This document shows positions 4,297 through 44,559 of a DNA stretch of 64,000 nucleotides, one piece after another (within the stretch, counting starts at the first letter, position 1; each line of letters begins with the position of its first letter). Under the pieces are notes generated by a model, which saw nothing but the letters and a program-made list of their open reading frames with translations, ran no database searches and had not been told where the DNA came from. The translations under genes were made by a program, and so were the position numbers. This DNA comes from Alphaproteobacteria bacterium (lineage in GTDB: Bacteria; Pseudomonadota; Alphaproteobacteria; VGEJ01): assembly GCA_965248765.1 (NCBI GenBank), contig CBDFKF010000003.1, forward strand, positions 386,257-450,256. The letters run 5' to 3'.

Positions 4297-4931
4297 ACGA
4301 GACCGGCGCTGCGACGCCGGCGCGGGACAGGCTGCGGAGCGATCTACGGCTGGTTGCCGATCTGATTGAGCCGCAGACCCGCGTCCTCGACGTCGGCTGC
4401 GGCGACGGCGCGCTTCTCGACTACCTCGAGCACGCGAAGGGGGTGGACGCGCGCGGGGTGGAGATCAGCCAGGACGGGGTGCGCCACTGCGTCAGCCAGG
4501 GACTTTCGGTGATCCAAGGCGATGCTGACGCCGACCTCGGCGATTACCCCTCGGACGCCTTCGATTATGTGATCCTTAGCCAAACGCTGCAGACCGTGCG
4601 CGAGCCACGAACGGTGCTACAGGAGCTCACGCGTATCGGCCGGCGAGTCATCGTCTCGTTTCCCAACTTCGGATACTGGCGGGTGCGACTCTATCTGGCG
4701 GTGCGCGGGCGCATGCCGGTGACCCAGGCCCTCGGCCAGCCGTGGTACGAGACCGCCAATATCCACTTCTGCACGTTCCGCGATTTCGAGGCGCTATGCC
4801 GAGCCCTCGATGTGACGGTGCGTCGTCGGATCGCGATCGATCATCAGGGTCGGGTTGGATCATTCCCCGCCCTCGGGCCACTCGCCAACGTCTTCGGCGA
4901 AATCGGCGTCTTCGTGCTCGAGAAGCGCTGA
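4293..4931 (+). CDS. metW: methionine biosynthesis protein MetW
   Basis: 212 aa, methyltransferase-like (VLDVGCGDG). Translationally coupled to metX, the typical metXW pair. Confidence 0.85.
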
Positions 4932-7648: not shown

Positions 7649-8098
7649 ATGCCCGCGGCGGTGGGATATGCCGCGCCGTTATCGGTTCTGCCCGATCCAC
7701 TGGCGCTGCCGAATCCAGCCAACGATGTGCTGGAGCGGCGGGATCGCGAGTCGGTCGCGCAGAGTTCGATCCGTGATGCCGATGCATCCGACGCCCGGCC
7801 GGAGCGGGCTCGGCGCGCCGGCCAGTTCCAGCGGCCGCGAAGCCGCGCTTCGGATGCTGAAACCGCGCAACGGCGTGGCAATGCTAGCCCGGAACGGCCA
7901 GGGAACGGCCGCGCGCCGCTCGGCTTCGGCGTACCGTCGAGCCCGTTTCTGACCCAGCTGATCGCCCAACAGATAATCCCCGAAGACGCGCCACCGCCAA
8001 CGGAATCGGCGGACGAGGGCATCAGCGCCTACCAGACCGTACAGCGGCAATCCGAATCGTTCTTCGGGCCGCTGATCCCGACTGAGATCCGCGTCTAG
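7649..8098 (+). CDS. hypothetical protein
   Basis: 149 aa ORF with a strong GC3 bias, downstream of a 240 bp AT-rich putative promoter region. No family recognised. Confidence 0.35.
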   Translation: MPAAVGYAAPLSVLPDPLALPNPANDVLERRDRESVAQSSIRDADASDARPERARRAGQFQRPRSRASDAETAQRRGNASPERPGNGRAPLGFGVPSSPFLTQLIAQQIIPEDAPPPTESADEGISAYQTVQRQSESFFGPLIPTEIRV

Positions 8099-9452: not shown

Positions 9453-10368
9453 TGGACCGCGACTACCCGCGCGATCTGGTCGGCTACGGCCGCAAGCTGC
9501 CGCGCGCCCAATGACCGGGCGGGGCGCGGATCGCCCTGCAGATCTCACTCGCCTACGAAGCCGGCGGCGAGGCCAGCGTCCTGCATGGCGATTCGGGATC
9601 CGAGGGCATGCTGACCGATATCGGGTTCCCGGCCGTGGAGGGCCAGCGCAGCATCCATGCCGAGGGCTCGTTCAACTACGGCAGCCGCCGTGGTATCTGG
9701 CGACTGCTCAAGATCTTCGAGGAGCGCGAAATCCGCGTCGGTGTGCTTGCGGTCGTCATGGGTCTGGTGCGCAACCCCGAGGTTGCCCAGGCCATGGCGG
9801 AGACCGGCCATGAGATCGTCAGCCATGGCTGGCGGTGGATCGACTACCAGGATGTGCCCGAGAAGGTGGAGGCTGAGCACATCCGGCTCGCGGTCGAAGG
9901 GATCGAACGGGTCTGTGGCAAGCGGCCGGTGGGCTGGTTGACCGGGCGCCCGGGTCCCAACACGCGCCGGCTCGTGGTCGAGGAGGGCGGCTTCCTCTAC
10001 GACCGCGATGCGCTCGACGATGAGGTTCCCTACTGGGTCGAGGTCGCGGGCAAGCCGCACCTCGTGATCCCCTATTCCTATGAGACCAACGATAACCGGT
10101 TCAACGAGAACAGCGGCTTCAACACCGCCGATGACTTCTTCCAATACATGCGCGATGCCTTCGACGTGCTCTACGCCGAGGGCGCGGACGAGCCGAAGAT
10201 GCTATCGCTCGGCATCCACGACCGGCTGATCGGCCGGCCCGCCAAGTCGCTCGGCCTGGCGCGCTTCCTCGATCATGTGTGCTGCGCCACGACAAGGTGT
10301 GGATCTGCACCGGCGAGGAGATCGCCCGCCACTGGATGGCGGCGCACCCCTACCGCCCCACCGCGTAA
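9452..10368 (+). pseudogene. polysaccharide deacetylase (PuuE/allantoinase-type), disrupted
   Basis: In-frame TGA at 9512-9514 inside the motif RAQ-*-PGGARIA, where Trp is expected. A 2-bp (tg) insertion near 10284 shifts the C-terminus (HV(L)RHDKVWICTGEEIARHWMAAHPYRPTA is in another frame). The domain is otherwise complete. Confidence 0.7.
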
Positions 10369-23407: not shown

Positions 23408-24412
23408 CTAGCGGCTGAGCTCGCGCCTTACGGTCTGTGCAAGCCCGTCGCCGTCGAGACCATAGTGTCGGTAGAGATGTGTCGGTGGGCCGAGGAGGAT
23501 ATATTCGTCCGGCACGCCGATCCGGACCAGACGCACGCCGGCACCGGCCTCGGCCAGTACCTCGGCTACGGCGGAGCCGAACCCGCCGGTCACGTTGTGC
23601 TCTTCGGCCGTGAACAACACAGCCTGGTCCTTGGCCGCCTCGAGGATGACGGCGCGATCGATGGGCCGGATCGAGTACAGGTCAACGACACGCAGCGCGA
23701 TCCCGTCGTCGGTGAGGATCGCGGCCGCATCGCGCGAAGCGCGGACGAGGTTGCCGATGGCGAATACGGTCGCATCGCGCCCATCACGCAGCACGTTCGA
23801 GCCGCCGATCCGCCAAGTGGGTGGCGCATCGTACACGTCGGCCTCGCGGCCGCGGCCCACCCGGAAATAGATCGGCCCGTCGTGGTCGATCGTGGTCCGC
23901 AACGCGGCCCTGATGGCGTTGGCATCGCACGGCGCCATCAGCGTCAGGTTGGCCATGGTCCGCAGCACGCCAATGTCCTCGTTGCTGTGGTGCGACGTAC
24001 CGTAAAACCCCATGGCGATACCGGAATGGGTGCCGACCATGCGCACCTTCAGGCGCGGATAGCAGATGTCGTTGCGGATGTTCTCGCAGCCCATGAGGGC
24101 GAGGAAGAACGAATAGTTCGAGATGTAGGGCGTGAACCCGACCGTCGCGAGCCCGGCGGCGGCGCCGATCATGTTGCGCTCGGCAATGCCGAAATTGTAG
24201 TAGCGATCGGGGAAGCGCGCGCCGAAGTTGTTGACCCGCGTCGGCCCGCCGAGATCGGCCGTCAGCACGACGATGTCGTCACGACCCGCATCGGCCATGT
24301 CGATCAGCACGTCGCCGGTAGGCAGCGCCTTCGACAGATCGAGGGCGCCGACCATGTCCCAGGATTCGGCGTCGAAGCCGGGACCGACCGTGGTGCCCGC
24401 CACCTCAGCCAC
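23408..24412 (-). CDS. transketolase, C-terminal subunit
   Basis: Pyrimidine-binding and C-terminal transketolase domains (IVVLTADLGGPTRV, GIAERNMIGAAAGLA, GTHSGIAMGFYGTSHH). Confidence 0.85.
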   Translation of the reverse strand: MAEVAGTTVGPGFDAESWDMVGALDLSKALPTGDVLIDMADAGRDDIVVLTADLGGPTRVNNFGARFPDRYYNFGIAERNMIGAAAGLATVGFTPYISNYSFFLALMGCENIRNDICYPRLKVRMVGTHSGIAMGFYGTSHHSNEDIGVLRTMANLTLMAPCDANAIRAALRTTIDHDGPIYFRVGRGREADVYDAPPTWRIGGSNVLRDGRDATVFAIGNLVRASRDAAAILTDDGIALRVVDLYSIRPIDRAVILEAAKDQAVLFTAEEHNVTGGFGSAVAEVLAEAGAGVRLVRIGVPDEYILLGPPTHLYRHYGLDGDGLAQTVRRELSR

Positions 24413-25056
24413 CGTCGTCGAGCCCCCCTTGCGATCTCCGCCAACGCGCGGTCCCTATCGTCGGGTCCGAGGAAGACGAGATGCCATTGCCAGGTGCCTT
24501 CCATGAACGAGACGCCCTTGCCGGCAACGGTGTGCGCCAGCACGACCCGCGGGCCATCGCCCGGCGCGTTCAGCGCCTGATTGAGCGCGGTGAGGACGGC
24601 GTCGAGGTCATGACCGTCCTCGAGCTCGATCACGCGCCATCGGAACGCGCGCCACTTGTCGGCCAGCGGGCGGCTATCCATGACCTCCGCGGTCGGTCCG
24701 TCCGAGCCGACGGTGTTGATGTCGACGATGGCGACCAGGTTGGCAAGCCGGTAGTGGCCGGCCGACATCGCGGCTTCCCAGACCTGCCCCTCGCACATTT
24801 CGCCGTCGCCCATGAGACAGACGACGCGGGCCGGTGAGCCCCGCGCTGCCAAGCCCAGGGCCATGCCGACCGAGACCGAGAGGTTGTGGCCGATCGACCC
24901 GGACGAGAAGTCCGCCCCAACCACCTTGCGCATGTCGGGGTGATCTCCGAGCGGACTGCCAAGGCGCGTGTAGGAGTCGAGCACCTCTCTGGGGAAGAAG
25001 CCGAGATCCGCCAGCACCGGATAAAGGCCGATTGCGGCATGGCCCTTGCCCATCCA
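24304..25056 (-). pseudogene. transketolase N-terminal subunit, distal part (interrupted by IS1182-family element)
   Basis: Begins mid-domain (GKGHAAIGLYPVLADLGFF…GDGEMCEGQVWEAAM, the TPP-binding GDG motif). The first 69 codons lie at 26616-26822 on the other side of the IS. Confidence 0.8.
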
Positions 25057-26612
25057 GACCGTGTGGAAACTCTGGGTGGCGGGGATGGAGGTTTAGGTAA
25101 CCATGATTTGCGGCGATCCCACGTAATCTGGCGGTTTGGCGCCGGTAGCCCTGTGGAAGGGGCTCCAGGCCTCCGTGGATCGATGTGCGGCGCTCGATTT
25201 TGGCCTGATTCCCGTCTCATGCCCTCGCGGCGGCGATCAAGGCGGGAACACCTACCAGCGAGATCGCGCGGCGGATGTTGTAAGCCAGCGCCGTGATGCT
25301 GAACTCGCCGCGCACGTTCTCCAGCCGCCGGGTCAGGAAGGCACCCTGGCCCATCCATTGTTTGATTGAGCCGAAGGGATGCTCGACGCTTTCACGGCGC
25401 GCATCGAGCAGCTCCGGGCGGGCCGCCAATCGTTCTGCCATGCGCTCCAGGATCGCTTCGGCGCTTGCGCTTGCTGTGTAGCGCCAGGCGTTGGCCGTCG
25501 GGGCAGATGTAAATGTCCTCGCCGCCGTCATAGCGGAAGCGTTCCTTGGGAAAGAGCCCCTGGCTCACCGTGGATCCGCGCTGGGGCTTGGGCACATGCG
25601 GCACGACGCCGGCATTCTCGCAGGCCTCGATATCCTCGATCTTGAAGTAGCCCGCGTCGGCGACCGCGTCGATCCGATCGACGGCCAGGTTCCGACGGGC
25701 CACCACCGCCGTCTCGGCCAATAGACCGAGATCGCTGACCTTGTTATGGACCTGCTGCTCGGCGATCAGTTTGTGCTTGGCGTCCACGGCGATCTGAATG
25801 TTGTAGCCGACACCGACCCGGGTCTCGGCGTACATCGCCCGGCTGTCCGGATCCGTCAAAGAGAGCTGGTCCTCGCCACTCGCAGCCAGCGCGTCTCGAT
25901 GTTCCTCAAACCGCTCACGCCGCCCTTGGATCGCAGCGATCTTCTCCTGGATATGCTCCACCTCGCCGCCGCCGGTGCCGCCCTCGTCTTGCTCGTCGGC
26001 CTCGTCGAGCCGGTCGAGATAACGCGACAACCTCTCGTCGCTCTCGGCCAACGCCTTCGCCAGCTTCGCTTTGGTGAAGTTCCGCTTCCGGCTGTTCACT
26101 GCCTTGATCCGTGTACCGTCAACCGCCACCAGCTCGCGTCCGAACAGCTCCAGTTCGCGGCATAGCCTCACGAACTCCCGAAACACCTGTCGGAAGGCCG
26201 CCCGATTGATCCGCCGGAAATCGGCGATCGTCTTGAAGTCTGGCGACAAACGCCGCAACAGCCAGATCACTTCGAGATTACGCTTGCTCTCTGCCTCCAG
26301 CCGGCGGCTCGAACGTACCCGATTGAGATAGCCGTATATGTAGAGCTTCAGCAGGTCCGCCGGATCGTAGCCGGGACGACCTATCGCCTTCGCCGCGGCG
26401 CGCTCGAAACCAGCGGCCGCTAGGTCCAAACCATCCACGAAGGCATCGATGAAACGGACCGGGTTATCCCGGCCCACGTAATCGTCCACTGCTTCCGGCA
26501 GAAGCAGAACCTGAGAGCGGTCAACGCCAGGAATGTGTCTCATGGCGGACCCTAACATCGCCATGAGACGGACGGAATCCCCCGCCACCCAGAGTTTCCA
26601 CACGGTCTGCAT
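25057..26612 (-). mobile_element. IS1182-family insertion sequence (about 1.56 kb) inside the transketolase N-subunit gene
   Basis: Perfect 30-bp terminal inverted repeats CAGACCGTGTGGAAACTCTGGGTGGCGGGG at 25058-25087 and rc at 26583-26612. The flanking sequences (ttcaccATG | gATGggcaag) indicate a target duplication of about 3-4 bp. The host reading frame is restored across the junction (DRDRFTM-GKGHAA). Confidence 0.8.
25217..26564 (-). pseudogene. IS1182 family transposase (frameshifted near 25500)
   Basis: N-terminal motifs RSQVLLLPEAVDDYV…YDPADLLKLYIYGYLNRVRSSRRLE…DFKTIADFRR and C-terminal VEHPFGSIKQWMGQGAFLTRRLENVRGEFSITALAYNIRR are in two different frames. The upstream part is read as a fusion with the transketolase fragment in the ORF track. 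Confidence 0.7.
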
Positions 26613-26822
26613 GGTGAAGCGGTCGCGATCGGTCCAATCGGGCTGATCGGCGCGGATGTTCAGAAGCTGGTAGTAGAGCACCGTCACGAGTTCGGCCATG
26701 GAGAACGCCGAGCCATAGTGACCCGAGCCGCAGATGTCGGTGAGCCGCACGGTCTCGCGGCGGATCATCTTGGCTTTCTCGACCAGCTCGGCCTTGGCGA
26801 TGTTGCGAACGGGGCGCGACAT
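26613..26822 (-). pseudogene. transketolase N-terminal subunit, 5' fragment (first 69 codons)
   Basis: ELVEKAKMIRRETVRLTDICGSGHYGSAFSMAELVTVLYYQLL…PDWTDRDRF is the canonical transketolase N-terminus, ending at the IS inverted repeat. Confidence 0.8.
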
Positions 26823-26916
26823 ATCGTTCTATCCGCGGGGGGTAACGGGCTAAGAGTGTGCCAGAGCGGATCAGAAAAGTGGACCAAGCGCGTAAGCGGA
26901 ACCCCAGGAGGGTGGG

Positions 26917-28230
26917 ATGCGGCGCGAAGAGATGATCATGGTTGGCTTTTGCGACTATGCCGGCAAGGTCCAGGCCAAGGGCTTTGCCGCGGCCGACTGG
27001 GGTGCGCGCCGCCACCAGGGCATTGGCCTTGCCAAGACCAATCTCATGATCAACGCGCTCGGGCAGATCGCGGCCTCGCCGTGGGGCCCGCGCGGCGACC
27101 TCGTGGTCATCCCCGATCCGGACACCCGTATCCGGCTCACCTTCGACCCGGACGATCCGGTCGAGCACACCTTCCTCGGCGATGTCCGCAACACCGATAA
27201 CACGCCATGGGCCGGCTGCCCGCGGAGCTTTCTGCGTTCAGCGCTCGCCGACCTCGAGACCGAGGCCGGGTTGCGCGTGCTCTCGGCCTTCGAGCACGAG
27301 TTCCACTACTCCGGGGCCGAGTCGCGCATCGGCGATGCCTATGCGCTCGAGTCGGTGCGCTCGACCGGGGTCTTCGTCGAAGCACTGTTCGCGGCGTTGC
27401 GCGCGGGCAACGTCGAGCCCGACACCTTCCTGCCAGAGTACGGGCCGCAGCAGTTCGAGCTCACCCACAAGCCCGCGCTCGGACTCGCCGCCGCCGACCG
27501 CGCCGTCCGCCTGCGCGAAATCACCCGGCTGGTCGCGCGACGGCTCGGCCACCGCGCCTGCTTTTCGCCCGTGGTCACCCGCAACTTCGTTGGCAACGGC
27601 CTGCACATCCACTTCAGCCTGATCGACGAGCGAGGCCAGCCCGCCGGCTATGACGCCGAACGGCCCCACGGCATCAGCGCGGTAGCCGGGGCCTTCGTCG
27701 CCGGCGCGCTGCGCCAGCTCCCGGCGTTGTGCGCGTTCACCGCGCCCAGTGTCATCTCCTACGAACGTCTGCGCCCCAATAGCTGGAGCGCCGCCTATAA
27801 CAACCTCGGGCGCCGCGACCGCGAGGCGGCGATCCGGCTGTGCCCGGTGTTCGAGGAGGCCGGCATCGCCACCGAGCGCCAATACCACTTTGAGCTCCGC
27901 GCCTGCGATGGCGCGTCGAACCCCTACTTCGCCCTGGGTGCGCTCGTCCGCGCCGGGCTCCAGGGCATCCGCGACGGCTTGGCGACGCCGGAGCCGACGT
28001 TGGAGGGGCCCGAAGCGCTCTCCGAGCCGGAGCGGGCGCGCCGCGGCATCACCCGCCTGCCGCAGTCGCTCGATGAGGCGCTCATCGCCCTGGAATCCGA
28101 TGCGATCGCCAACGCCTGGTTCACGCCCGAGATCCTGGGCGCCTACGTCATGCTCAAGCACGGCGAGATCGAGGGCCTGCGCGAGTGCGACGCGGACGAG
28201 ATCTGCGAGCGCTATCGCCAGGCCTATTGA
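26917..28230 (+). CDS. glutamine synthetase family protein (GlnA-like catalytic domain)
   Basis: 437 aa with a GS catalytic domain (EHEFHYSG…, NGLHIHFSL ATP/glutamate-site motifs). Resembles gamma-glutamyl-amine synthetases. Confidence 0.75.
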   Translation: MRREEMIMVGFCDYAGKVQAKGFAAADWGARRHQGIGLAKTNLMINALGQIAASPWGPRGDLVVIPDPDTRIRLTFDPDDPVEHTFLGDVRNTDNTPWAGCPRSFLRSALADLETEAGLRVLSAFEHEFHYSGAESRIGDAYALESVRSTGVFVEALFAALRAGNVEPDTFLPEYGPQQFELTHKPALGLAAADRAVRLREITRLVARRLGHRACFSPVVTRNFVGNGLHIHFSLIDERGQPAGYDAERPHGISAVAGAFVAGALRQLPALCAFTAPSVISYERLRPNSWSAAYNNLGRRDREAAIRLCPVFEEAGIATERQYHFELRACDGASNPYFALGALVRAGLQGIRDGLATPEPTLEGPEALSEPERARRGITRLPQSLDEALIALESDAIANAWFTPEILGAYVMLKHGEIEGLRECDADEICERYRQAY

Positions 28231-28262
28231 ATCGCCGCGTGCCAACCGGCAGGAGACATGAC

Positions 28263-29096
28263 GTGCCGACTCAAGAAGAAAAGGCGACGGCGTTCCAGGA
28301 ACTGCACACGCGTTCCGGTGCCTTCATCGTGCCGAACCCCTGGGATGCCGGCACCGCGCGGATGCTTGCCGCGTTGGGCTTCGAAGCGCTGGCGACGACC
28401 AGCTTGGGTGTCGCCAACATGCTGGGCCGCAGTGATGGCACCGGGGCGGTCACCGCCGACGACATCGTCGAGAATTGCCGGATGATCACCGCGGCGAGCC
28501 CGCTGCCGGTCACCGCGGATTTGGAGAACTGCTTCGCCGATGAGCCGCGCGCCGCGGCCGAGATGATCGGCCGTGCCGCGGAAGCCGGCATCGTCGGCGG
28601 CTCGATCGAGGATTTCACTGGCGATCCGCGCAAGCCCATCTATGAATTCGACCACGCCGTAGAGCGAGTGCAGGCGGCGGTGGAGGCGGCACGCGCGCTG
28701 CCGTTTTCCTTCGTGCTGACGGCACGGGCGGAGAATCTACTGCGCGGCCGCGACGACCTCGACGACACCATCCGGCGCTTGCAGGCCTTCGAGGCGGTCG
28801 GCGCCGATGTCCTCTACGCGCCCGGCACCCGGGACCTCGACACGCTTCGCACCGTTGTTGCCGCCGTCACCAAACCGGTGAACGTCGTCATGGGCCTCGC
28901 CGATCCGGCGATCACCGTCGATCAGCTCTCAGCGGTCGGCGTCCGGCGAATCAGCGTCGGCGGTGCGCTGTCGCGCATCGCCCTGGCCGCCTTCCTGAAG
29001 GCGGCGCGCGAGATGCAGGACGACGGCCGGTTCACGTTTATCCGCGACATGGTCCCCGTGAGCGAGCTTAGAGACATGTTCCAGGATGAGGACTGA
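28263..29096 (+). CDS. isocitrate lyase/PEP mutase family protein
   Basis: PEP mutase/ICL superfamily (FIVPNPWDAGTARM…, EDF…KP). Start set at GTG 28263 after an AGGAGA ribosome-binding site. Confidence 0.7.
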   Translation: MPTQEEKATAFQELHTRSGAFIVPNPWDAGTARMLAALGFEALATTSLGVANMLGRSDGTGAVTADDIVENCRMITAASPLPVTADLENCFADEPRAAAEMIGRAAEAGIVGGSIEDFTGDPRKPIYEFDHAVERVQAAVEAARALPFSFVLTARAENLLRGRDDLDDTIRRLQAFEAVGADVLYAPGTRDLDTLRTVVAAVTKPVNVVMGLADPAITVDQLSAVGVRRISVGGALSRIALAAFLKAAREMQDDGRFTFIRDMVPVSELRDMFQDED

Positions 29097-30185
29097 AACG
29101 ATGGCGGATGCGCTGCGCACACATCTTCAAGGCATTCTCGATGACTACGTCGAGCGTGGGATCATCGGCGTCTCACTGGCGGTGAGCGTGCCCGGCGAAG
29201 GCGAGATTCTGCAGGCGAGCGGTGTTGCCGACCGAGCTGCCGGCTCGGCCATGACCCCCGATCATCTCTTTCGGATCGGCAGCAATACCAAGACCTTCGT
29301 CGCCGCGGCGTTGCACCAGCTCATCGCCGAGGGCGGCGTCGATCTCGACGCGCCGGTCAGCCGCTGGTTCCCCGAGCTGCCCAAGGCCGACGTGATCACC
29401 GTTGGCGCGCTGATCAATCACCGCAGTGAGCTGCCCGAGTTTGAGTACGACATTCCGATCATCTCCGACCGCGTATGGACGCCCGAGGAGGGTGTCGCGT
29501 TCGCCTTCGAGGTCGGCGAGCAGAAGGAGCCCGGCGGCGAGATGGCATACAGCAACACCGGCTACGTCCTGGCCGGCATGATCATCGCGGCCGAGACCGA
29601 CGCGCCACTGTCGCGGCGTATTCGCACGCACATCTTGGAACCGTTGGGCCTGCACCACACCTGGATCGGCTCCGATGAGGCCTTCCCCGTTGAGCGGCTG
29701 GCGCGGGCTACATGCACCCCGACGAGGACGGCCACCGTTTATGGGACCTGCGCGATGTGCCGGACCAGGGAGACGAGCCGCGGGATGCGACCGAGTGGTT
29801 CCCGCTCTCCGGCGCCGGCGCCGCCGGCGATATGATCTCGACGCCGCGCGATACCGTCCACTGGCTCCAGGGCCTGTTCGGCGGTCGGGTGCTCGACGAG
29901 CGGGGCCAATGGGAAATGACCGGCAATCTGATGCCGGCGAGCTTCCCGGGCACGCCGTTCTCGCACAACGGCCACGGCATCCTGGTCTTCACGTTCGGCG
30001 ACGACCTCGCGGTCAAGGGCCATGGCGGCGGCATGCCGGGCCACGTCACCTGGATGGCCCACGATGAGCAAAGCGGCACCACCGCCGCGCTGTTTCAGAA
30101 CTCCTGTGCGAGCGACATGCATGCCTTCCAGAGGGGCGGCATTCGCGAGCCCTTCGAGGCGGTCTTCCGCACCGCGCGCGCCTGA
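29086..30185 (+). CDS. serine hydrolase (beta-lactamase-related family), frameshifted near 29700
   Basis: SxxK motif (RIGSNTKTF), YSNTGY motif and HGGG(M)PG motif. The reading frame shifts by +2 between ...FPVERLAR and GYMHPDEDGH, creating two ORFs (29086-29835 and 29712-30185). Confidence 0.7.
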
Positions 30186-34067: not shown

Positions 34068-35610
34068 TCAGATGTCTGAGACCTCGCGCAAGGACCGCTC
34101 GGTCTCGTCATCGTCGGGCGGATCGCCTGCGTCGTTGGCTTGCGCGACGCCGGTCTTGGTGACCCGCCTCGGGTCGGAATCGAGCACGATGCCAAGCTCA
34201 TCGAGCTTCTCGTTCATGGCCGCGATCTCGGCCAGCACCGCGTCGGGGTTGCGGCCCTTGCGCGCGATCGCCTCGGCCAGGGTCGTGGTGCCCGAGCGCA
34301 GCGCCAGCAGATCGGCCATGGCGTCTTTCTGCGGGTCGACCGCCTCGAACTCGGGCGGCGACCAGTCGACGCGCACGATGGGCTCGGGGACATGCCCCGC
34401 CGCCCAGGCGGCCTCGGTAAACCAGCGCCACACCGGCGTACAGAACATCGGGATGAAGAGCTGCCACTGGACCGCATCGATCATGCGGCGGAACTCAACC
34501 AGCCCGGCCCGGATCGAGGAGTAGTTGACCTGACTTAGATCGCCGGTCAGCAGCTCGTAGGGCACCCGGAACCCGGCGCCAACGGTATGCAGGCTCGCCC
34601 GCTTGTACTCGGCGTAGCCGCCGGTGGCGGCCGGCTGGTTGAAGCGGATCTCCTTGCTGCCGCGGGCATAGGCGATGAGGCCGGGCTCGAACTGCTCGAC
34701 ATGGTTACCGTCGGCGTCCACCACCGTCGGCGCGATGCCCTGCTCGGCCTCGTCTGCGCCGAGCACAATGGCGGTCACGCAGGCCTCGGTCTTCTTGCGC
34801 ACGATCTCGGCGACCTCGTAGTCGTCGACATCGCGAAGCGCCCGGATGACCGGCGCGCCCCACGGCACGCCGCGGGCCTGGGTGCGCTGCTTCTCGTAGA
34901 CATGGGCGATCTCGGCCGCCGGCACCGGCTTGCTCTTGAAGCCGCCGCGTCCGCCGCCGACGAGGGCGCCGAAGGCATCGCCCGGATGACGGTCATGGAG
35001 CCAGTAGGCGCGGCGCTTGCCCAGCGCGTCGAACTCAATCCCCTGCACCGCCTGACGACCGTTACCGAGGGCGCCGGTCTTGCCTGCATCCAGAAAATCC
35101 GCCTCGAGCACCTGCAGTTGGACCGGGACCGCGAGGCCGTCGGAAGCCCGGCGGGCGCGCCGGCGCACCAGCACCTCACCGGCTTCGACCATCTCGTGGC
35201 ACGCAAGCGTCTGCAGGCCGTAGAAATCGAGCTGACCGTCACTGTCACAAGCGCCGGTCCAGTCCTCCCACAGCTTGTTGACGGTCTTGTCGAGCGGCCT
35301 CGTCGCCGGTCGCGGCGCGCGGCATGATGCCGGCGCCGACGATGTTGTTGACCAGCACCGCCACCGCCTTGGCGGCGTGCGGGTTGTTGCGCACCAGATC
35401 GCGCATGCGGTCGCGCAGGAGCGCGCCGGCCACCGCGATCTCACCGTCGGCCGAGCTCGCCGCCGCACGCCAGCCCTCGGTACGCCGGCCCCTGGCCGCG
35501 CCCTCGTAACCCCGGGTGAGCCCCTCGAAGGCCTGGCGGGCCAAGAGACGCCGCGTCGCCGCACGGGGCGATACCGTGGCGATCGCCCGGTCGAACCAGC
35601 TCGCGCCCAT
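34068..35610 (-). pseudogene. phage portal protein, lambda (gpB) family, frameshifted near 35300
   Basis: The C-terminal 400 aa carry lambda-portal motifs (…QVNYSSIRAGLVEFRRMIDAVQ…). The N-terminal 121 aa (MGASWFDRAI…GDEAAR) are in another frame (ORF 35245-37086) and join at …GDEAAR | PLDKTVNKLWEDW. Start overlaps the gpW stop (ATGA). Confidence 0.75.
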
Positions 35611-35819
35611 CAGCGGTCGCCCCGCTTGAACCGGGCATAGCCCACCATCGGAGATGCCTTGCCAGTGCTGCCGATGGCGCGCTCGATGGTGCGGATACGG
35701 GCCAGCAGGTCCTGGGCGGAGCCGTATTCGACGGACTTGCCGTCGTAGCTCACGCGCAGCGTGCCGCTGGCGTAGGCGCGCCGCAGCGCCGCCAGCTCCG
35801 TCTCGGTCCAGTCGCTCAT
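35610..35819 (-). CDS. phage head-tail joining protein gpW family
   Basis: 69 aa. MSDWTETELAALRRAYASGTLRVSYDGKSVEYGSAQDLLARIRTIERAI matches the gpW fold family, and it is placed between terL and portal as in lambda. Confidence 0.6.
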   Translation of the reverse strand: MSDWTETELAALRRAYASGTLRVSYDGKSVEYGSAQDLLARIRTIERAIGSTGKASPMVGYARFKRGDR

Positions 35820-35821
35820 TC

Positions 35822-37844
35822 CAACCATCCTCCCGGTGGCCCAGCCAGTCCGAGCGCCGCTTGTTGCCGGTAGGCGCCGATGGCGGCCGGTTGACGATGC
35901 CGGCGGTCGCGTCACCGTCGCCGGCGACGCCCGCCTGCGCCTCGAGATCGGCCCACTTGGCCTCGCCCCAGCGGTCGGCGCCGGCGATCCAGGCGGCGGC
36001 CCGGGCATAGACCCGGCAATCCAGCGCCTCGTTGCGCTCGCGCATCTTCTGCCATTCGAGCCGGGCGAAGCCGCGCCGTGTGCGCACCGTCACCAGCTGC
36101 TCGGCGACGAACTGCTTGAGCCATTCGTCCTCGATCCAGTGGGGCAGATGCACGCTGCCCGACGGATACACCTTGCCCTCGGCGCGCTCTTCTTCGGTCG
36201 GGCGTTCGAGCCTCAGGAAACGATAGGTCTCGGCCTTGAAGGTCGAGACGGCGACGGTCCAGAGCCGGGCGCCGCGACGCAGCCGCTTGCCGCCGTCGGA
36301 AACATCGACATAGGTCGGCCCCGAGACCGGGCTCGACCGGTTGAAGCCGTCGGTGCCCTTGACCGGGGCGACTTGCACGATCCCGGCGCGCCGTGCCCAG
36401 GCGTAGACGGCGGTCGGCTCGTAACCGGTATCGATGGAAAGCTTCGCCAGACCCAGCGCGGCGGCGTTCTCATGGGGCCAGGTTTGGCCAAGCAGCCGGT
36501 CGAGTTCGGCCCAAGGCTCGGCTCGCTCGGGCCGCCCTCGATGACGACATGATCGATCAGCCAGCTTTCCAGGCCGCGGCCCCAGACCCAGACATCGACC
36601 TCGATACGGTCCTTCTGCACGTCCGCGCCGGCGGTGAGGAAGAGCCCGCCGGCGGGCACCGTGCCCGGCAACCAGCGCTCCCGGCGATCGTAGAGCCGCT
36701 GCCAGTCGGGCGCTTCGCCGCTCTCGACCCAGGTCTCGCCGAGGATGGTGTTCTTGAACGCACGGACGCGCTCCAGGTCGCTCGAACCGGTGGCGCTCCC
36801 TGTCGCGCCGTCGGACCCTTGGGCCGCCACCCAGGCGCGCGCGATGGCCTCCCATGAAAGCCAGCCGACCGGCGAATAGAGCGCCGAGAGATGAAACCCG
36901 ATGGTCGTGGGATCGGTTGCTTCCGCCGTCGCCCGCCACTCGCCCGCCGCCAGCATCGCCGTCTTGTGGTGCTCGGCGATCGCCTCGTCGCAGGATGCGC
37001 AATGGTAGGCCGCCGTCTCGGGCTTGCCCTTGTCCCAGCGGAGCCGCTCGAAGGCGAGCCATTGCCGATGTCCGCAATGGGGGCACGGCACGAAGTAGCG
37101 ACGCTGGTCCGAGGCCTCGTACTCGCGCTCGATGCGCGAAAAGCCCTTTACCGTCGGCGTCGAGATCAGCAACACCTTGCGCCGGTGGGCGAAGGTGAGC
37201 GAGCGGGCTTCCGCCAGCGTCACCGGGTCGCCTTCCTCGTCCGCCGAGGCCGGATAGGCGTCGACCTCGTCCAGGAGGATGTAGCGCGCCGGGATCGAGC
37301 GCAGACCGACCGCCGAGTTGGCCCCGGTCATGATCAGGATGCCGCCGGCGAACTCCTTCGACAGCATGGTGTTGCCGGCATCGCGCGAATGCGCCGGCCG
37401 GACCAAACCTCGGAGCGCCGCGCTCTCCTCGATCAGCGGATCGATGCGCTGGCGCGAGTTGCGCTTGGCCAGCTCCACCGTCGGCTGGACCGCCAGCATC
37501 GGTCCCGGCGCCTGGTGGATGACAAAGCCGATAAAGTTATTGGCTCCCTCGGTCGCGCCGACCTGTGCTGCCTTCATGAACACCACCCGCCGGCACGGAT
37601 CCGCCGGTGACAGCGCGTCCATGATGGCCCGCATGTAGGGCGTGCGTGCGATGCGGTAGCGCCCCGGCTCCGCCGACGCCCTTGCTGCCAGCATGCGGTG
37701 CCTCTCGGACCATTCCGAGACGCTCAACAGCGGGTCCGGCGTCAACCCGTCGCGCCAGGCGCGGGCGATGTCGTCCGCGCCGGCGAAGGCCTCAGCGGAA
37801 CTCGGGCCGGATCTCGGCGAGCTCATTGAGATGATCTCGGACAT
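35822..37844 (-). pseudogene. phage terminase large subunit, GpA (lambda) family, frameshifted near 36535
   Basis: N-terminal ATPase (…VVFMKAAQVGATEG…) and the LLDEVDAYP and CPHCGHRQ zinc-finger motifs lie in ORF 36213-37844. The C-terminal nuclease part (…ERAEPWAELDRLLGQTW…TGYEPTAVYAWARR…) continues in ORF 35245-37086. A 1-nt deletion relative to the duplicate copy at 49341 sits in a ggcggccc run. The 3' end is approximate. Confidence 0.75.
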
Positions 37845-41710: not shown

Positions 41711-42850
41711 ATGAGAAAAATCGGGCCCGACTCAATCAGAGTGGCCATCGCCGGCGTCGGCAACTGCGCGAGTTCCCTTGTCCAGGGGTTGGAATACTAC
41801 CGGGGCCGTAACGAGGAGTCATTCAGCGGTCTTATGAACGCAAAGATCGGCAACTGGGGGCCGAGCGACATCGAGATCGTGGCCGCCTTCGATATCGACC
41901 GCCGCAAGGTGGGTAAGTTGGTGGAGGAGGCGATTTTCGCCCAACCCAACTGCACCAAGGTCTTCCAGAGCACCCTGCCGGTATCCGACGTGGTGGTGCG
42001 GATGGGGCCGGTTCTCGACGGAGTGGCGCCTCACATGGCCGACTATCCCGATGACGAGGCTTTCCGACCTTCCAACGAGCAACCGGTCGATGTTGTCCAG
42101 GTCCTCAAGGAGGCCGAGGCCGAAGTTCTGGTCTGCTACATACCGGTAGGTTCGGAAGAGGCGGTTCGGCACTATGCCCGGGCCTGCCTGGAGGCCGGAG
42201 TGGCCATGGTCAACTGCGTTCCGGTTTTTATCGCCTCCGACCCCGAATGGGTTGAGAAATTCTGTCACGCCGGCCTGCCCATCGTCGGCGACGACATCAA
42301 AAGCCAGGTCGGCGCCACCATCGTGCATCGAACCCTGACCCGCCTGTTCGGTGACAGGGGCGTGCCACTTGACAGAACCTATCAGTTGAACACGGGCGGC
42401 AACACGGACTTTCTCAACATGAAGGCCCTCGATCGACTGAAGTCCAAGAAGGTTTCCAAGACGGAATCCGTGCAGTCGCAGTTGGACGAACGTCTGGAAT
42501 CCCGGGACATCCATATCGGACCGTCCGATTACGTGCCGTGGCAGGACGACAACAAGGTCGCTTTCATCCGCATGGAGGGGCGCGGCTTCGGGGACGTGCC
42601 GTTGGAACTGGAACTCAGACTGTCGGTCCAGGATTCCCCCAACAGCGCGGGCGTGGTCATCGATGCCATCCGTTGCGCCAAGCTGGGGCTGGAGCGCGCA
42701 ATCGGCGGCTCCTTGGAAGCCGCTTCCGCCTATTACATGAAGAGCCCGCCGAAGCAGATGCGTGATTCGTTGGCCTATGAATTGACCGACGCATTTATTC
42801 AAGGCGGAGATGTCGGCGAGGGGACATCTCGAACGGACGCCGATGACTAG
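41711..42850 (+). CDS. ino1: myo-inositol-1-phosphate synthase (bacterial/archaeal type)
   Basis: NAD-binding N-terminus IAGVGNCASSLVQGLEYY and conserved catalytic region (…NTGGNTDF…). Start at ATG 41711 after a GGAG ribosome-binding site. Local GC is about 58-60% against 68% background. Confidence 0.85.
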   Translation: MRKIGPDSIRVAIAGVGNCASSLVQGLEYYRGRNEESFSGLMNAKIGNWGPSDIEIVAAFDIDRRKVGKLVEEAIFAQPNCTKVFQSTLPVSDVVVRMGPVLDGVAPHMADYPDDEAFRPSNEQPVDVVQVLKEAEAEVLVCYIPVGSEEAVRHYARACLEAGVAMVNCVPVFIASDPEWVEKFCHAGLPIVGDDIKSQVGATIVHRTLTRLFGDRGVPLDRTYQLNTGGNTDFLNMKALDRLKSKKVSKTESVQSQLDERLESRDIHIGPSDYVPWQDDNKVAFIRMEGRGFGDVPLELELRLSVQDSPNSAGVVIDAIRCAKLGLERAIGGSLEAASAYYMKSPPKQMRDSLAYELTDAFIQGGDVGEGTSRTDADD

Positions 42851-43665
42851 GTCGTGGACTCATAATGCCTGAGCCACAGACGTATGGAAGCAAGTGCCAC
42901 GGCGGCGAGGAAATTTCTGGCGAGTTTGTCGTAGCGCGTGGCGACGCGTCTGAAGTGTTTGATCTTGTTGAAGAAGCGCTCAACGAGGTTGTGTTGGCGG
43001 TAGAGCTCCGGAGCAACGTAGCGTGGCATCCGTACATTGCTCTGCGAGGGGATGTGGGCGGTGGCGCCGGTGTTCTCGATCAGCTCGATGAGGCAGCGGG
43101 CACTGTAGCCGCGGTCGGCGATGACATCACGCGCCAGGCGCAGTCCTTCGAGCAGCACCGGGGCTGTGGTCTTGTCGGAGGCCTGGCCGGCAGTGAGCAG
43201 CAAGCGCACCGGCAGGCCCCTGGCATCCACCACCGTGTGGATCTTGGTGCTCAGTCCTCCACGAGAACGACCGATGGCGTGATCCGGACCCCCTTTTTTC
43301 CCCCGGCGGCGTGTTGATGCGCGCGTACAATCGAGGAGTCGATGAGGTGAAGAGAGGCGGGCGATTTCTCGGCGAGAGCCTCGAACACACGCAGCCACAC
43401 GCCGGCCTTGGCCCAACGATTGAACCGGTTGTAGACCGTCGTGTGGGGCCCGTAGCGCCTCGGCAGATCGCGCCACGGCGAGCCCGTGCGCAGGGTGTAG
43501 AAGATACCGTCCACCACACGGCGGTCGTCCACACGCGGCACTCCGCGTGGCTTGTTCGGAAGCAACGGCGCGATGATCGCCCACTCCGCGTCGCTCAGAT
43601 CGAAACGTGCCATTCTCAAGCTCCCACAATTTGGGAACTTGAATCATATCTCCCCGTAAAGGGGA
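42840..43665 (-). mobile_element. IS5-family (IS427-group-like) insertion sequence immediately 3' of ino1
   Basis: Two overlapping transposase frames with an A6G slippery site. Boundaries are approximate because the inverted repeats were not confidently resolved. Confidence 0.65.
42847..43619 (-). CDS. IS5 family transposase OrfAB (programmed -1 frameshift)
   Basis: orfA (43251-43619, MRMARFDLSDAEWAIIAPLLP…) and orfB (…GKKGGPDHAIGRSRGGLSTKIHTVVDARGLP…DDE…). The GGGGAAAAAAGGGGG heptamer region lies at about 43293-43307 on the coding strand. Confidence 0.75.
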
Positions 43666-43674
43666 ATCCCCTTT

Positions 43675-44559
43675 ATGGGTACAAGACCTAGACGCGACGG
43701 TCGGGCTGCCAACAATGGTCCGGGCGGTGGCAACACAGTCCGGACTGTGGACGCGCCGTGGGTGGAGCTGCTGCTCGCGCTCCACTGCCAGGTGCGGAAC
43801 GCGCTCGCGAAGGCCGGCCGCGGCAGCACCGGGGCCACCAACCCCAAGGGCGACGAGGTCAAGGTCTTCGACCTCGCCGCCAACGACGCGGCAGTGGCCT
43901 GCCTGAAGGCGGCGGCGGTTCCGCTGATTGTCCAATCGGAAGAGGCCGAGCCCCTGGAAATCGGCCGCGACCGGCCCCGCTATCGACTGATCCTCGATCC
44001 CGTGGACGGCTCCGACAACCGGGCGCGCGGGCTGCCGTGATCGGCCTTGTCTTGCGCCGTGCTGCCGGTCGACGCCCCCTTGCATCCCGACTGGGTCGAG
44101 GCGGCCCTGGTCGGGCCGCTCGAGGAGGAAACGCCCCTGATCGCGCTCAGGGGCTCCGGCGCCTGGCGCGGGAACGACCGGCTCGAATCCTCGGACGTTC
44201 GCGGCATCGCCGAGGCCATGATCTCGGTCGAGCTCAATCACTTTTCTTCGCCACCGGGCTTCGCCCGCATGATGGCCGCCGCCAGGGGGGTGCGGTGCTA
44301 CGGTTGCGCGTCCCGAGCCCTCTCCCTGGTTGCCGCTGGCGCCACCGACGCCCATGTGGACGTGCGTCGCCGTCTGACGGCGGAAAGCTATCTCGCCGCC
44401 GCGCGGCTGGTGACCGAGGCGGGGGGATGGATTGGCGGCCTCGACGGCACGCCCCTGGCGGAGGCCGAAGGCTTGACCGACCGCATCTGCTTGATCGCGG
44501 CGGCGAGCCGGGATCTGTACGACGAAATCGTGGAGGTCTTGGGCGATGAAGGACACTGA
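43675..44559 (+). pseudogene. inositol monophosphatase (IMPase/FBPase) family phosphatase with an in-frame TGA
   Basis: DPVDGS motif (metal-binding DPIDGT). TGA at 44038-44040 interrupts the conserved block GLP-*-SALSCAVL. The downstream part (44041-44559) is in the same frame. Confidence 0.7.

Follow-up and report, generated by a model that had tools for sequence, protein, structure and literature searches.

The main finding of this work is the identification of an IS1182-family element that was in all likelihood already defective and non-autonomous when it transposed into codon 70/71 of tktN, the gene for the N-terminal subunit of a split transketolase, in an uncultured alphaproteobacterium, a reading to which we assign a probability of roughly 0.88. 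All positions refer to the window, that is, the whole 64-kb stretch of DNA that was analysed. Integration duplicated GATG, the 4-bp centre of the site CTTCAC-GATG-GGCAAG, and split tktN into a 71-codon head and a headless 3' part, the head reading via the left inverted repeat into a truncated transposase. Since an internal deletion takes the catalytic glutamate out of the reading frame and thereby prevents self-mobilisation, the transposase would have been provided in trans by an intact copy located elsewhere. The insertion would inactivate the enzyme, and polarity would probably lower the expression of tktC, the gene for the C-terminal subunit; as its role is most likely accessory, the loss of the enzyme would probably be tolerated.

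The insertion is documented by an uninterrupted orthologous locus (L124, encoding the protein P0127), which is 98.3-98.5% identical to the window across the flanks and in which the empty site reads TTCAC-GATG-GGCAAG. This locus bears out the clean insertion into a transketolase N-subunit gene that a sequence-only reading of this DNA had proposed. When the window was compared with L124 by BLAST, the two matching segments overlapped by GATG at the empty site (L124 positions 10210-10213), which indicates that the target duplication is 4 bp long; of the 3-4 bp given in that reading, the short duplication stands, with a length of 4 bp rather than 3. The left copy of the duplication, at 26610-26613 (-), reads CATG where the empty site has GATG, and the right copy, at 25051-25054 (-), is GATG as in the empty site. 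One base in four is mismatched between the two copies, which requires a later point mutation or imprecise repair. Duplications of 4 bp were also found around the same IS or its close relatives at other loci, namely CATC/CATC at L122 and L123, GATC/GATC at L205, CACC/CACC at L206 and GGTG/GGTG at L207. Excision of the element yields DRDRFTMGKGHAA, exactly as in the intact orthologue P0127 (98% identical), and the same sequence occurs in 41 of the 46 orthologues of other species; the restoration of the frame on removal, which had also been claimed, is confirmed by the uninterrupted sequence carried by P0127 and L124. That a repeated IS was misplaced within tktN by the assembly is scarcely credible. 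Some noise in the assembly is hinted at by other frameshift-like defects, an extra G at 24423-24428 and a split beta-lactamase-family gene at 29712-29835, but the two junctions are precise to the base and carry the 4-bp duplication typical of this IS, a mis-join would create no target duplication, and the flanks are collinear with L124.

As delimited by its inverted repeats and by alignment to full-length copies, the whole element extends over 1555 bp, at 25055-26609 (-). The repeat search placed the left inverted repeat (IRL), which measures 30 bp and lies at the end where the transposase starts, at 26580-26609 (-) and its perfect complement (IRR, 30 bp) at 25055-25084 (+); the repeats read CAGACCGTGTGGAAACTCTGGGTGGCGGGG at both element ends, and a 30-bp match was obtained in 0 of 100 shuffles. 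Perfect repeats of 30 bp had been noticed before, and this part was right, while the coordinates then assigned to them (25058-25087 and 26583-26612) were 3 bp off. Ends longer by 5 nt (CCATC/GATGG), prompted by the inverted-repeat-like flanks, were ruled out, because the empty site of L124 has those bases and because tktN, and likewise istA, a second gene hit by this IS, is restored when no more than CAGACC...GGTCTG plus 4 bp is excised. In metagenome contigs, the outer 18 nt of IRL, CAGACCGTGTGGAAACTC, are conserved at over 120 ends of IS elements; in the relatives at L001, L122 and L123, IRR departs from IRL beyond position 18 and exceeds it by 2 nt. Outside gaps of 107 nt and 2 nt, the window element shares 97.4-98.9% identity with the full-length copies at L122, L123 and L205, and the full-length relatives (n = 5) measure 1664-1679 bp. 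The window element is a non-autonomous deletion derivative of an IS of about 1664 bp. A tblastn search with the intact transposase found no second copy of the IS within the 64-kb window. An exact search with a 22-nt IS end gave 0 matches in GTDB species-representative genomes, which means that the source species, with this IS, is absent from that set.

The truncated transposase ORF (383 aa; 25392-26543 (-); PF05598, PF01609 and NF033551) comprises DUF772 and the first two Asp residues of the DDE triad; its last part is the frameshifted tail ...KRKRRSDPGAHGRTIGGPPGAARCAP. Alignment to full-length copies places the junction of a 107-nt internal deletion, with CG microhomology, at 25460-25461 (-); these 107 nt, present in all five full-length relatives, are absent from the window copy, and their loss takes out DLFFASYANRAACKECQLKSKCTKSAFRRVLRYVD and changes the frame. 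The transposase frame is indeed broken, as had been noted, the lesion being an internal deletion and not the simple frameshift described. An out-of-frame remnant of the transposase C-terminus follows at 25217-25459 (-), matching PF13751 (DDE_Tnp_1_6) and positions 410-487 of NF033551, and bears an R-x3-E-x6-K motif (RRESVEHPFGSIK). The glutamate of the DDE triad lies in this segment, out of frame after the junction 25461/25460, and the window copy has no uninterrupted transposase ORF with the full D, D, E triad by which autonomy was judged. Against NF033551 (cut-off 270 bits) the 383-aa ORF reaches 295.5 bits, aligning to positions 3-384 of the 488 in the model, compared with 384.4 bits for the intact relative P0003 (477 aa, 99% identical).

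The window ORF is identical to the public protein P0121, and the same frameshifted tail also occurs in P0123 (an R289W variant), P0124 (5'-truncated) and P0126 (a relaxase fusion), the multiplicity of the deleted form being known from protein sequences only. These four proteins share source labels and are listed with NCBI/ENA contigs of 2.94 and 0.80 Mb (0.80 Mb for P0124), and on this basis they probably come from one public assembly. As the tail is common to at least three other loci, the deletion would predate the insertion into tktN, and the element would have been defective already on entering the gene. Rearrangement, not transposition, could be the origin of some of the other deleted loci, which are remnants truncated at the 5' end. 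With its intact, perfect ends, the window copy could be mobilised in trans. An alternative course, in which an autonomous IS inserted and later gained a private frameshift that left a dead, immobile relic, would agree with the broken transposase frame and with the lack of an intact copy in the 64-kb window. We consider it very unlikely, since the break is a 107-nt deletion, its exact tail recurs in P0123, P0124 and P0126, which makes the deletion older than the insertion, and both 30-bp ends are perfect, as mobilisation in trans requires. For the same reasons, the earlier suggestion that the copy is now immobile finds no support, the recurrent tail and the perfect ends fitting mobilisation in trans.

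The 5' part of tktN (codons 1-71) lies at 26610-26822 (-) and the 3' part, from Met71, at 24304-25053 (-). Both pieces match Pfam Transketolase_N (PF00456), at profile positions 6-58 and 62-267, in agreement with the previous assignment of the flanking gene to the transketolase N-subunit; that reading had also been correct in placing codons 1-69 at 26616-26822 and the restart of the gene at ATG 25053. The tktN head is in frame through IRL into the transposase ORF, giving a 476-aa ORF (25392-26822). The gene bears two more lesions, which, together with the mismatched duplication, leave the description of the insertion as recent unsupported. At 24423-24428 (-), alignment to L124 and to orthologue C-termini reveals six consecutive G, one more than in the orthologue. 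The extra G moves the frame by +1, the final residues LDDGG* being replaced by a 39-aa tail that overlaps tktC, and the ORF runs past the orthologous tktN stop (TGA, 24405-24407) on to 24304; in 42 of 46 orthologues the tail past WQWH measures 25-26 aa. This six-G run could be an assembly indel. The other lesion is a GTC (Val) codon at 24475-24477 (-), a position occupied by Gly in 46 of 46 orthologues (WQWHLG[FY]LG). A scan of 24300-27000 found no promoter-like or terminator-like sites.

The gene for the C-terminal subunit, tktC (23408-24412 (-); PF02779 and PF02780), is apparently intact, with a likely start at GTG 24403, where the orthologue has ATG. In this split layout Transketolase_N (PF00456) is encoded by tktN, and Transket_pyr and Transketolase_C by tktC, the two genes being adjacent and overlapping; the pair is kept in 79 of 80 related loci checked. 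The best NCBIfam model, NF004559 'transketolase', gives 252.1 bits for the N half and 212.7 bits for the C half, the simple sum of 465 remaining below a cut-off of 488 that is set for a single chain, and each half falls under every NCBIfam transketolase equivalog cut-off. The tktC half also scores 180.6 bits against the DXS model. Among 47 species representatives (65-79% identity), the neighbours of the pair include a short-chain dehydrogenase (37 of 47), a DctP TRAP binding protein (20), LysR (20), DctQM (11) and a DRL-type oxidoreductase (11), a context that looks like an accessory catabolic cluster. The dehydrogenase, TRAP and LysR neighbours are absent from the window and from L124, and in the window the pair is accompanied by a GlnA-like gene, a PEP-mutase-family gene and a response regulator. 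Judging from the context in relatives, the interrupted enzyme is most likely an accessory, substrate-specific transketolase and not the housekeeping one of the pentose-phosphate pathway. Its designation as a central pentose-phosphate enzyme in the sequence-only reading is unsupported, given the sub-cut-off scores and the dehydrogenase, TRAP and LysR genes around the pair in the 47 relatives.

That the insertion abolished the sole, central pentose-phosphate transketolase, with major metabolic consequence, is in our opinion highly improbable. Both halves clearly belong to the transketolase family (252 and 213 bits against NF004559), and tblastn with tktN and tktC found no second transketolase within the 64-kb window; however, the genome comprises at least 3.7 Mb, both halves score below the single-chain equivalog cut-off of 488, and the neighbours in the 47 relatives are not pentose-phosphate or Calvin-cycle genes. 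In addition, the bacterial split transketolases known from characterisation are extra enzymes beside a full-length Tkt, as for instance Salmonella TktC (STM2340/2341) and, in D-apiose catabolism, the apulose-4-phosphate transketolase AptA/AptB, and the window pair likewise consists of an N half and a C half encoded by adjacent genes. As with these split transketolases, the pair in relatives is found with transporter and dehydrogenase genes; in contrast to the apiose pathway, no kinase or isomerase of that pathway was seen, and the neighbours include a TRAP transporter and a short-chain dehydrogenase. A literature search found, within the library covered, no paper joining 'apulose' with 'transketolase'.

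With regard to the choice of target, an 11-mer, CTTCACGATGG, is common to the insertion sites of this element in tktN and IS21 istA. The sequence CTTCAC-GATG-G occurs in tktN and in istA of IS21-type elements, and the istA site has been struck independently, in both orientations, at least twice and probably three times. The tktN target is an imperfect palindrome, CTTCAC-GATG-GGCAAG, centred on GATG, and relatives of the window IS sit in CAAAAAC-CACC-GTTTTTG and CAAAC-GGTG-GTTTG. Family-wide, the flanks form an inverted motif, and a palindrome-type tetranucleotide is preferred, CTTG, CAAG and CATG accounting for 53 of 113 flanks. The flank motif GTGCRAAAWTC-WWG, found on both sides and much stronger family-wide, would represent a target consensus about 24 bp in length; a palindrome of the form GTGCAAAAATC-WWG-GATTTTTGCAC is a candidate target. 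The possibility that GTGCRAAAWTCWWG, located outside the ends of other members, forms part of the element was considered and appears unlikely, since copies that agree in their inner sequence carry differing versions of it. On the other hand, 480 kb of family-member loci contained no palindrome that was unoccupied. We tentatively propose, at what we regard as slightly less than even odds, that this IS1182 subgroup is a sequence- or structure-directed inserter that would recognise a perfect or imperfect palindrome and duplicate its 4-bp centre, CTTCAC-GATG-G being a secondary preferred site of the window element. If this is true, the tktN knock-out would be a predictable hot-spot event and not a random one.

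The knock-out itself is a routine insertion-sequence event in an IS-rich, uncultured alphaproteobacterial genome and has little bearing on central metabolism. Its modest value lies in the clean pair of empty and filled sites, by which both the ends of an undescribed IS1182-family element and its 4-bp duplication are established, in a deletion derivative that is unable to make transposase and yet is found at several loci, and in the data that it adds on palindrome-centred targeting in a family with a poorly characterised insertion mechanism.

The placement in the IS1182 family, proposed earlier, is sustained by a transposase score above the NF033551 cut-off. The Pfam architecture, with DUF772 and DDE_Tnp_1 in the 383-aa ORF and DDE_Tnp_1_6 in the remnant, is the same as that recorded for homologues, and those at 73-76% identity carry the NCBI name 'IS1182 family transposase'. 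Megablast of the IS against plasmids returned partial matches only, none above 74% identity, in Rhizobium and Agrobacterium; as DNA identity to its nearest relatives on plasmids is only about 72%, the element is an undescribed member of the family. The IS1182 family (ISfinder; NCBI NF033551) is related to the IS5 family, and its elements range in ISfinder from about 1.3 to 1.95 kb and have variable target duplications; the window element shows terminal inverted repeats, a length within this range and a target duplication. A typical member has one DDE transposase, in a full length of about 1.66 kb here, whereas the window copy is a 107-nt deletion derivative without active transposase. Elements of the IS5 group make a 4-bp duplication of a palindromic tetranucleotide, for instance YTAR, and both this duplication and the preference for palindrome-type tetranucleotides are seen in the family of the window IS, which differs from that group in its transposase family model and in a target context that reaches about 10 nt on each side of the tetranucleotide. 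A parallel to the putative target consensus, about 24 bp long, is offered by IS30 with its palindromic hot spots. A palindromic target has precedents within the IS1182 family itself, since a passage of PMC5678879 that cites Siguier et al. attributes the targeting of palindromes to some of its members. IS1272, an IS1182-family element of Staphylococcus, transposes by a 'stem-loop/IR-replacing' mechanism in which the target stem-loop is deleted and no duplication is made (PMC5678879). Relatives of the window IS share with IS1272 a preference for palindromic or hairpin-like targets, but the window IS deletes nothing and instead duplicates the central 4 bp of the palindrome.

The gene for the N-terminal subunit of a split transketolase-family pair (tktN, minus strand) is genuinely interrupted by an IS; the insertion is precise and of an ordinary kind. 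The head of tktN is a minus-strand ORF with its ATG at 26822 (MSRPVRNIAK...PDWTDRDRFTM), and the 3' part is a minus-strand ORF at 25053-24304 starting MGKGHAAIGLY. The 69-aa head and the downstream ORF align with positions 6-58 and 62-267 of the Pfam Transketolase_N profile, respectively, in keeping with the identification of the host gene as a transketolase N-subunit in the sequence-only reading; the next gene, tktC (23408-24412, minus strand), carries Transket_pyr and Transketolase_C (Pfam). The inserted element covers 1555 bp (25055-26609, minus strand). Its left inverted repeat (IRL, 26609-26580, minus strand, CAGACCGTGTGGAAACTCTGGGTGGCGGGG) lies directly 3' of the ATG of Met71 (26612-26610), and its right repeat (IRR, 25084-25055) is the perfect reverse complement of CAGACCGTGTGGAAACTCTGGGTGGCGGGG, followed by a G and then ATG GGC AAG GGC CAT... 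(MGKGHAAIGLY...). The perfect 30-bp pair is therefore as first described, except that its coordinates had been placed 3 bp too high. With up to three mismatches allowed, the repeat has only these two matches in the window, and no matching repeat was found in 100 shuffles.

A search with the restored TktN protein retrieved an uninterrupted orthologue (P0127, 285 aa, 98% identical) that reads ...DRDRFTMGKGHAAIGLY... across the insertion site, the sequence expected if removal of the element restores the frame. Its contig (L124, ENA ERZ25070998) keeps the gene order of the window over the PEP-mutase family, GlnA-like, tktN, tktC and response regulator genes, and BLAST between the two gave two segments of 98.3-98.5% identity, which stop at window 26610 and resume at 25054. 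The segments share exactly four bases in L124, GATG (10210-10213, within TTCAC GATG GGCAAG), and therefore the insertion duplicated 4 bp. A short duplication of 3-4 bp had been proposed; it exists, but its size is exactly 4 bp and its copies in the window, GATG on the right and CATG on the left, are one base apart. The left-copy difference is a synonymous ACG to ACC change, and the mismatch is presumably a later substitution. Elsewhere, the element itself and its close relatives are flanked by clean 4-bp duplications: CATC/CATC at loci L122 and L123, GATC/GATC at L205, CACC/CACC at L206 and GGTG/GGTG at L207. Together, the inverted repeats and the empty-site comparison bear out a precise insertion into the host gene.

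The element is a previously undescribed member of a known IS type. Its transposase ORF (26543-25392, minus strand, 383 aa) contains DUF772 and DDE_Tnp_1, with DDE_Tnp_1_6 on a separate 104-aa ORF in a different frame. Assignment to the IS1182 family held, since the N-terminal fragment scored 295.5 bits (model positions 3-384) on NCBIfam NF033551 ('IS1182 family transposase'), above the cut-off of 270 bits; the C-terminal remnant scored 54.7 bits (positions 410-487) and P0003, an intact relative 99% identical and, like other intact relatives, of 477 aa, scored 384.4 bits (positions 3-487). The transposase frame is broken, as had been noticed, but the lesion is a 107-nt deletion: the same 107 nt are missing from the window copy in five of five alignments to full-length copies (1664-1679 bp), with CG microhomology at the junction (25461/25460). 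This deletion removes DLFFASYANRAACKECQLKSKCTKSAFRRVLRYVD and throws the catalytic glutamate motif segment RRESVEHPFGSIK out of frame, and therefore no active transposase can be made from the window copy. Since the element ends are intact and perfectly matched, the copy is better described as non-autonomous than, as previously suggested, immobile.

The public protein cluster around the window transposase ORF has five relevant members, probably all from one assembly: P0121, which matches the window ORF at every residue; P0002, called from a later start and so shorter, whose remaining 360 residues match; P0123, the same protein with R289W; P0124, which is 5'-truncated and has the same W; and P0126 (1614 aa), in which a conjugative-relaxase-like protein is fused at transposase residue 9 and the final 375 residues agree fully with those of the window ORF. 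All five are listed as NCBI/ENA, the longest contig being 2.94 or 0.80 Mb (0.80 Mb for P0124). The frameshifted tail ...KRKRRSDPGAHGRTIGGPPGAARCAP is common to all five, and its presence across distinct proteins therefore places the identical deletion at at least four distinct loci. On the simplest reading of these protein sequences, the 107-nt deletion would be older than the tktN insertion, inherited and not acquired in place: transposase supplied in trans by an intact copy would have copied a non-autonomous derivative to new sites, and the element would already have been defective on entering tktN.

In the window, IRL has no stop codon in the tktN frame (CAG ACC GTG TGG...), which yields a TktN(1-71)-transposase fusion ORF of 476 aa (25392-26822); an IstA-transposase fusion ORF of 603 aa is found at L122 (2501-4312). 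The fusion is not conserved, because TGA occupies that position in other IS copies. A scan of the region for promoter-like and terminator-like sites found none. Mobile DNA is plentiful here, and the window also holds a prophage remnant and a separate DDE_Tnp_1 transposase of 569 aa (34068-37844 and 42847-44556); the remnant has a lambda-type portal, and a terminase GpA nuclease domain joined in one ORF to the start of a portal.

The interrupted gene carries further lesions. Six G are present at 24423-24428, versus five in L124 (the 98% orthologue) and in all orthologues, and the resulting +1 frameshift turns the terminal LDDGG* (the last five TktN residues) into a 39-residue tail, so that the TGA no longer couples to the start codon of tktC. 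At codon 24477-24475 the window has GTC (Val), at a position that is Gly in 46 of 46 orthologues, within WQWHLG[FY]LG. The extra G and the Val change may be signs that an already dead gene is decaying; the six-G indel may instead be a homopolymer assembly error, because a nearby beta-lactamase-family gene is also split between two frames. That beta-lactamase/serine-hydrolase-family gene (29086-30185) is divided between frames that overlap, at 29086-29835 and 29712-30185, and the called product of its L124 orthologue has 291 aa. Under both readings there is no confident basis for the first description of the insertion as recent.

The interrupted enzyme is probably accessory. The TktN homologues retrieved, each of about 284 aa, are directly followed by the C-terminal-subunit gene in 79 of 80 related loci (GTDB species representatives), and the nearest named relatives (70-79% identity) are Alphaproteobacteria: Rhodovibrio, Elioraea, Microbaculum, Geminicoccaceae and Acetobacteraceae MAGs. 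This places the source in the same class, without a close representative among them. Around the pair in the 47 closest loci (GTDB relatives L125-L171, pair near position 8001), a short-chain dehydrogenase lies immediately upstream in 37, a DctP-type TRAP binding protein and a LysR regulator occur in 20 each, and a DctQM permease and a DRL-type (DXR-like) oxidoreductase (PF21135) in 11 each. This neighbourhood looks like an accessory catabolic cluster, not the pentose-phosphate pathway, and hints that the relatives have a catabolic or salvage pathway yet to be characterised. Both transketolase halves also score below every NCBIfam transketolase equivalog cut-off. In the window and L124 the pair is without these neighbours, standing between the GlnA-like gene and the response regulator; no second transketolase was found within the 64-kb window, a result that covers this stretch and not the rest of the genome. 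Inactivation of a central enzyme is therefore an unsupported and less likely reading. At 26917-29096, the GlnA-like gene, divergent from tktN, best matches gamma-glutamylputrescine synthetase (267 bits versus a cut-off of 650) and overlaps the PEP-mutase/isocitrate-lyase-family gene by 46 nt; in L124 it is called in two pieces.

The choice of target is one mildly interesting thread. The flanks in tktN are partly inverted (CTTCAC-GATG-GGCAAG), and the same IS lies within istA of IS21-type elements at L122 (2813-4476), L123 (2435-4098), L205 (1435-3098) and L001 (right end at 4598). The istA site, ...GGC TAC AC(C/G) ATC | GTG AAG GAC... (GGYT|IVKDY), reads CTTCAC-GATG-GTGTAG on the other strand, and the 11-mer CTTCACGATGG is common to both sites. 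The IS is reversed at the same istA position in L001, and both duplication copies in L205 are GATC instead of CATC; the istA site was therefore hit independently no fewer than two times, and probably three. The relatives at L206 and L207 (about 88.5% identity) lie in short hairpin-like palindromes, each centred on its duplicated 4 bp. The conserved 18-nt tip CAGACCGTGTGGAAACTC has 113 distinct flanks in the metagenome loci L002-L121; across these, G-T-G-C-R-A-A-A-W-T-C-W-W-G precedes both IS ends in inverted orientation, the last four bases being mostly CTTG, CAAG or CATG, and copies with identical interiors carry differing versions of this motif. These inverted flanks, present even with identical interiors, suggest that this IS1182 subgroup likely prefers palindromic targets, with a consensus about 24 bp long (GTGCRAAAWTC-WWG on each side). 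The 480 kb of metagenome loci examined contained no unoccupied palindrome. Two IS ends stand head to head at L025 (about 1640-1670) with a 4-bp CAAG spacer (...CACACGGTCTG CAAG CAGACCGTGTGG...), as might result from a tandem or nested insertion or resemble a circle junction. At L207 (1420-1465), IRL has a 15-nt tandem duplication (GAAAACTCTGGGTGC twice) resembling IRL-side duplications reported for IS1272. The palindrome-centred targets agree with the published statement that palindromes are the targets of some IS1182-family members (PMC5678879). Unlike IS1272, which replaces a stem-loop and leaves no duplication (PMC5678879), the window element and its relatives leave a 4-bp duplication.
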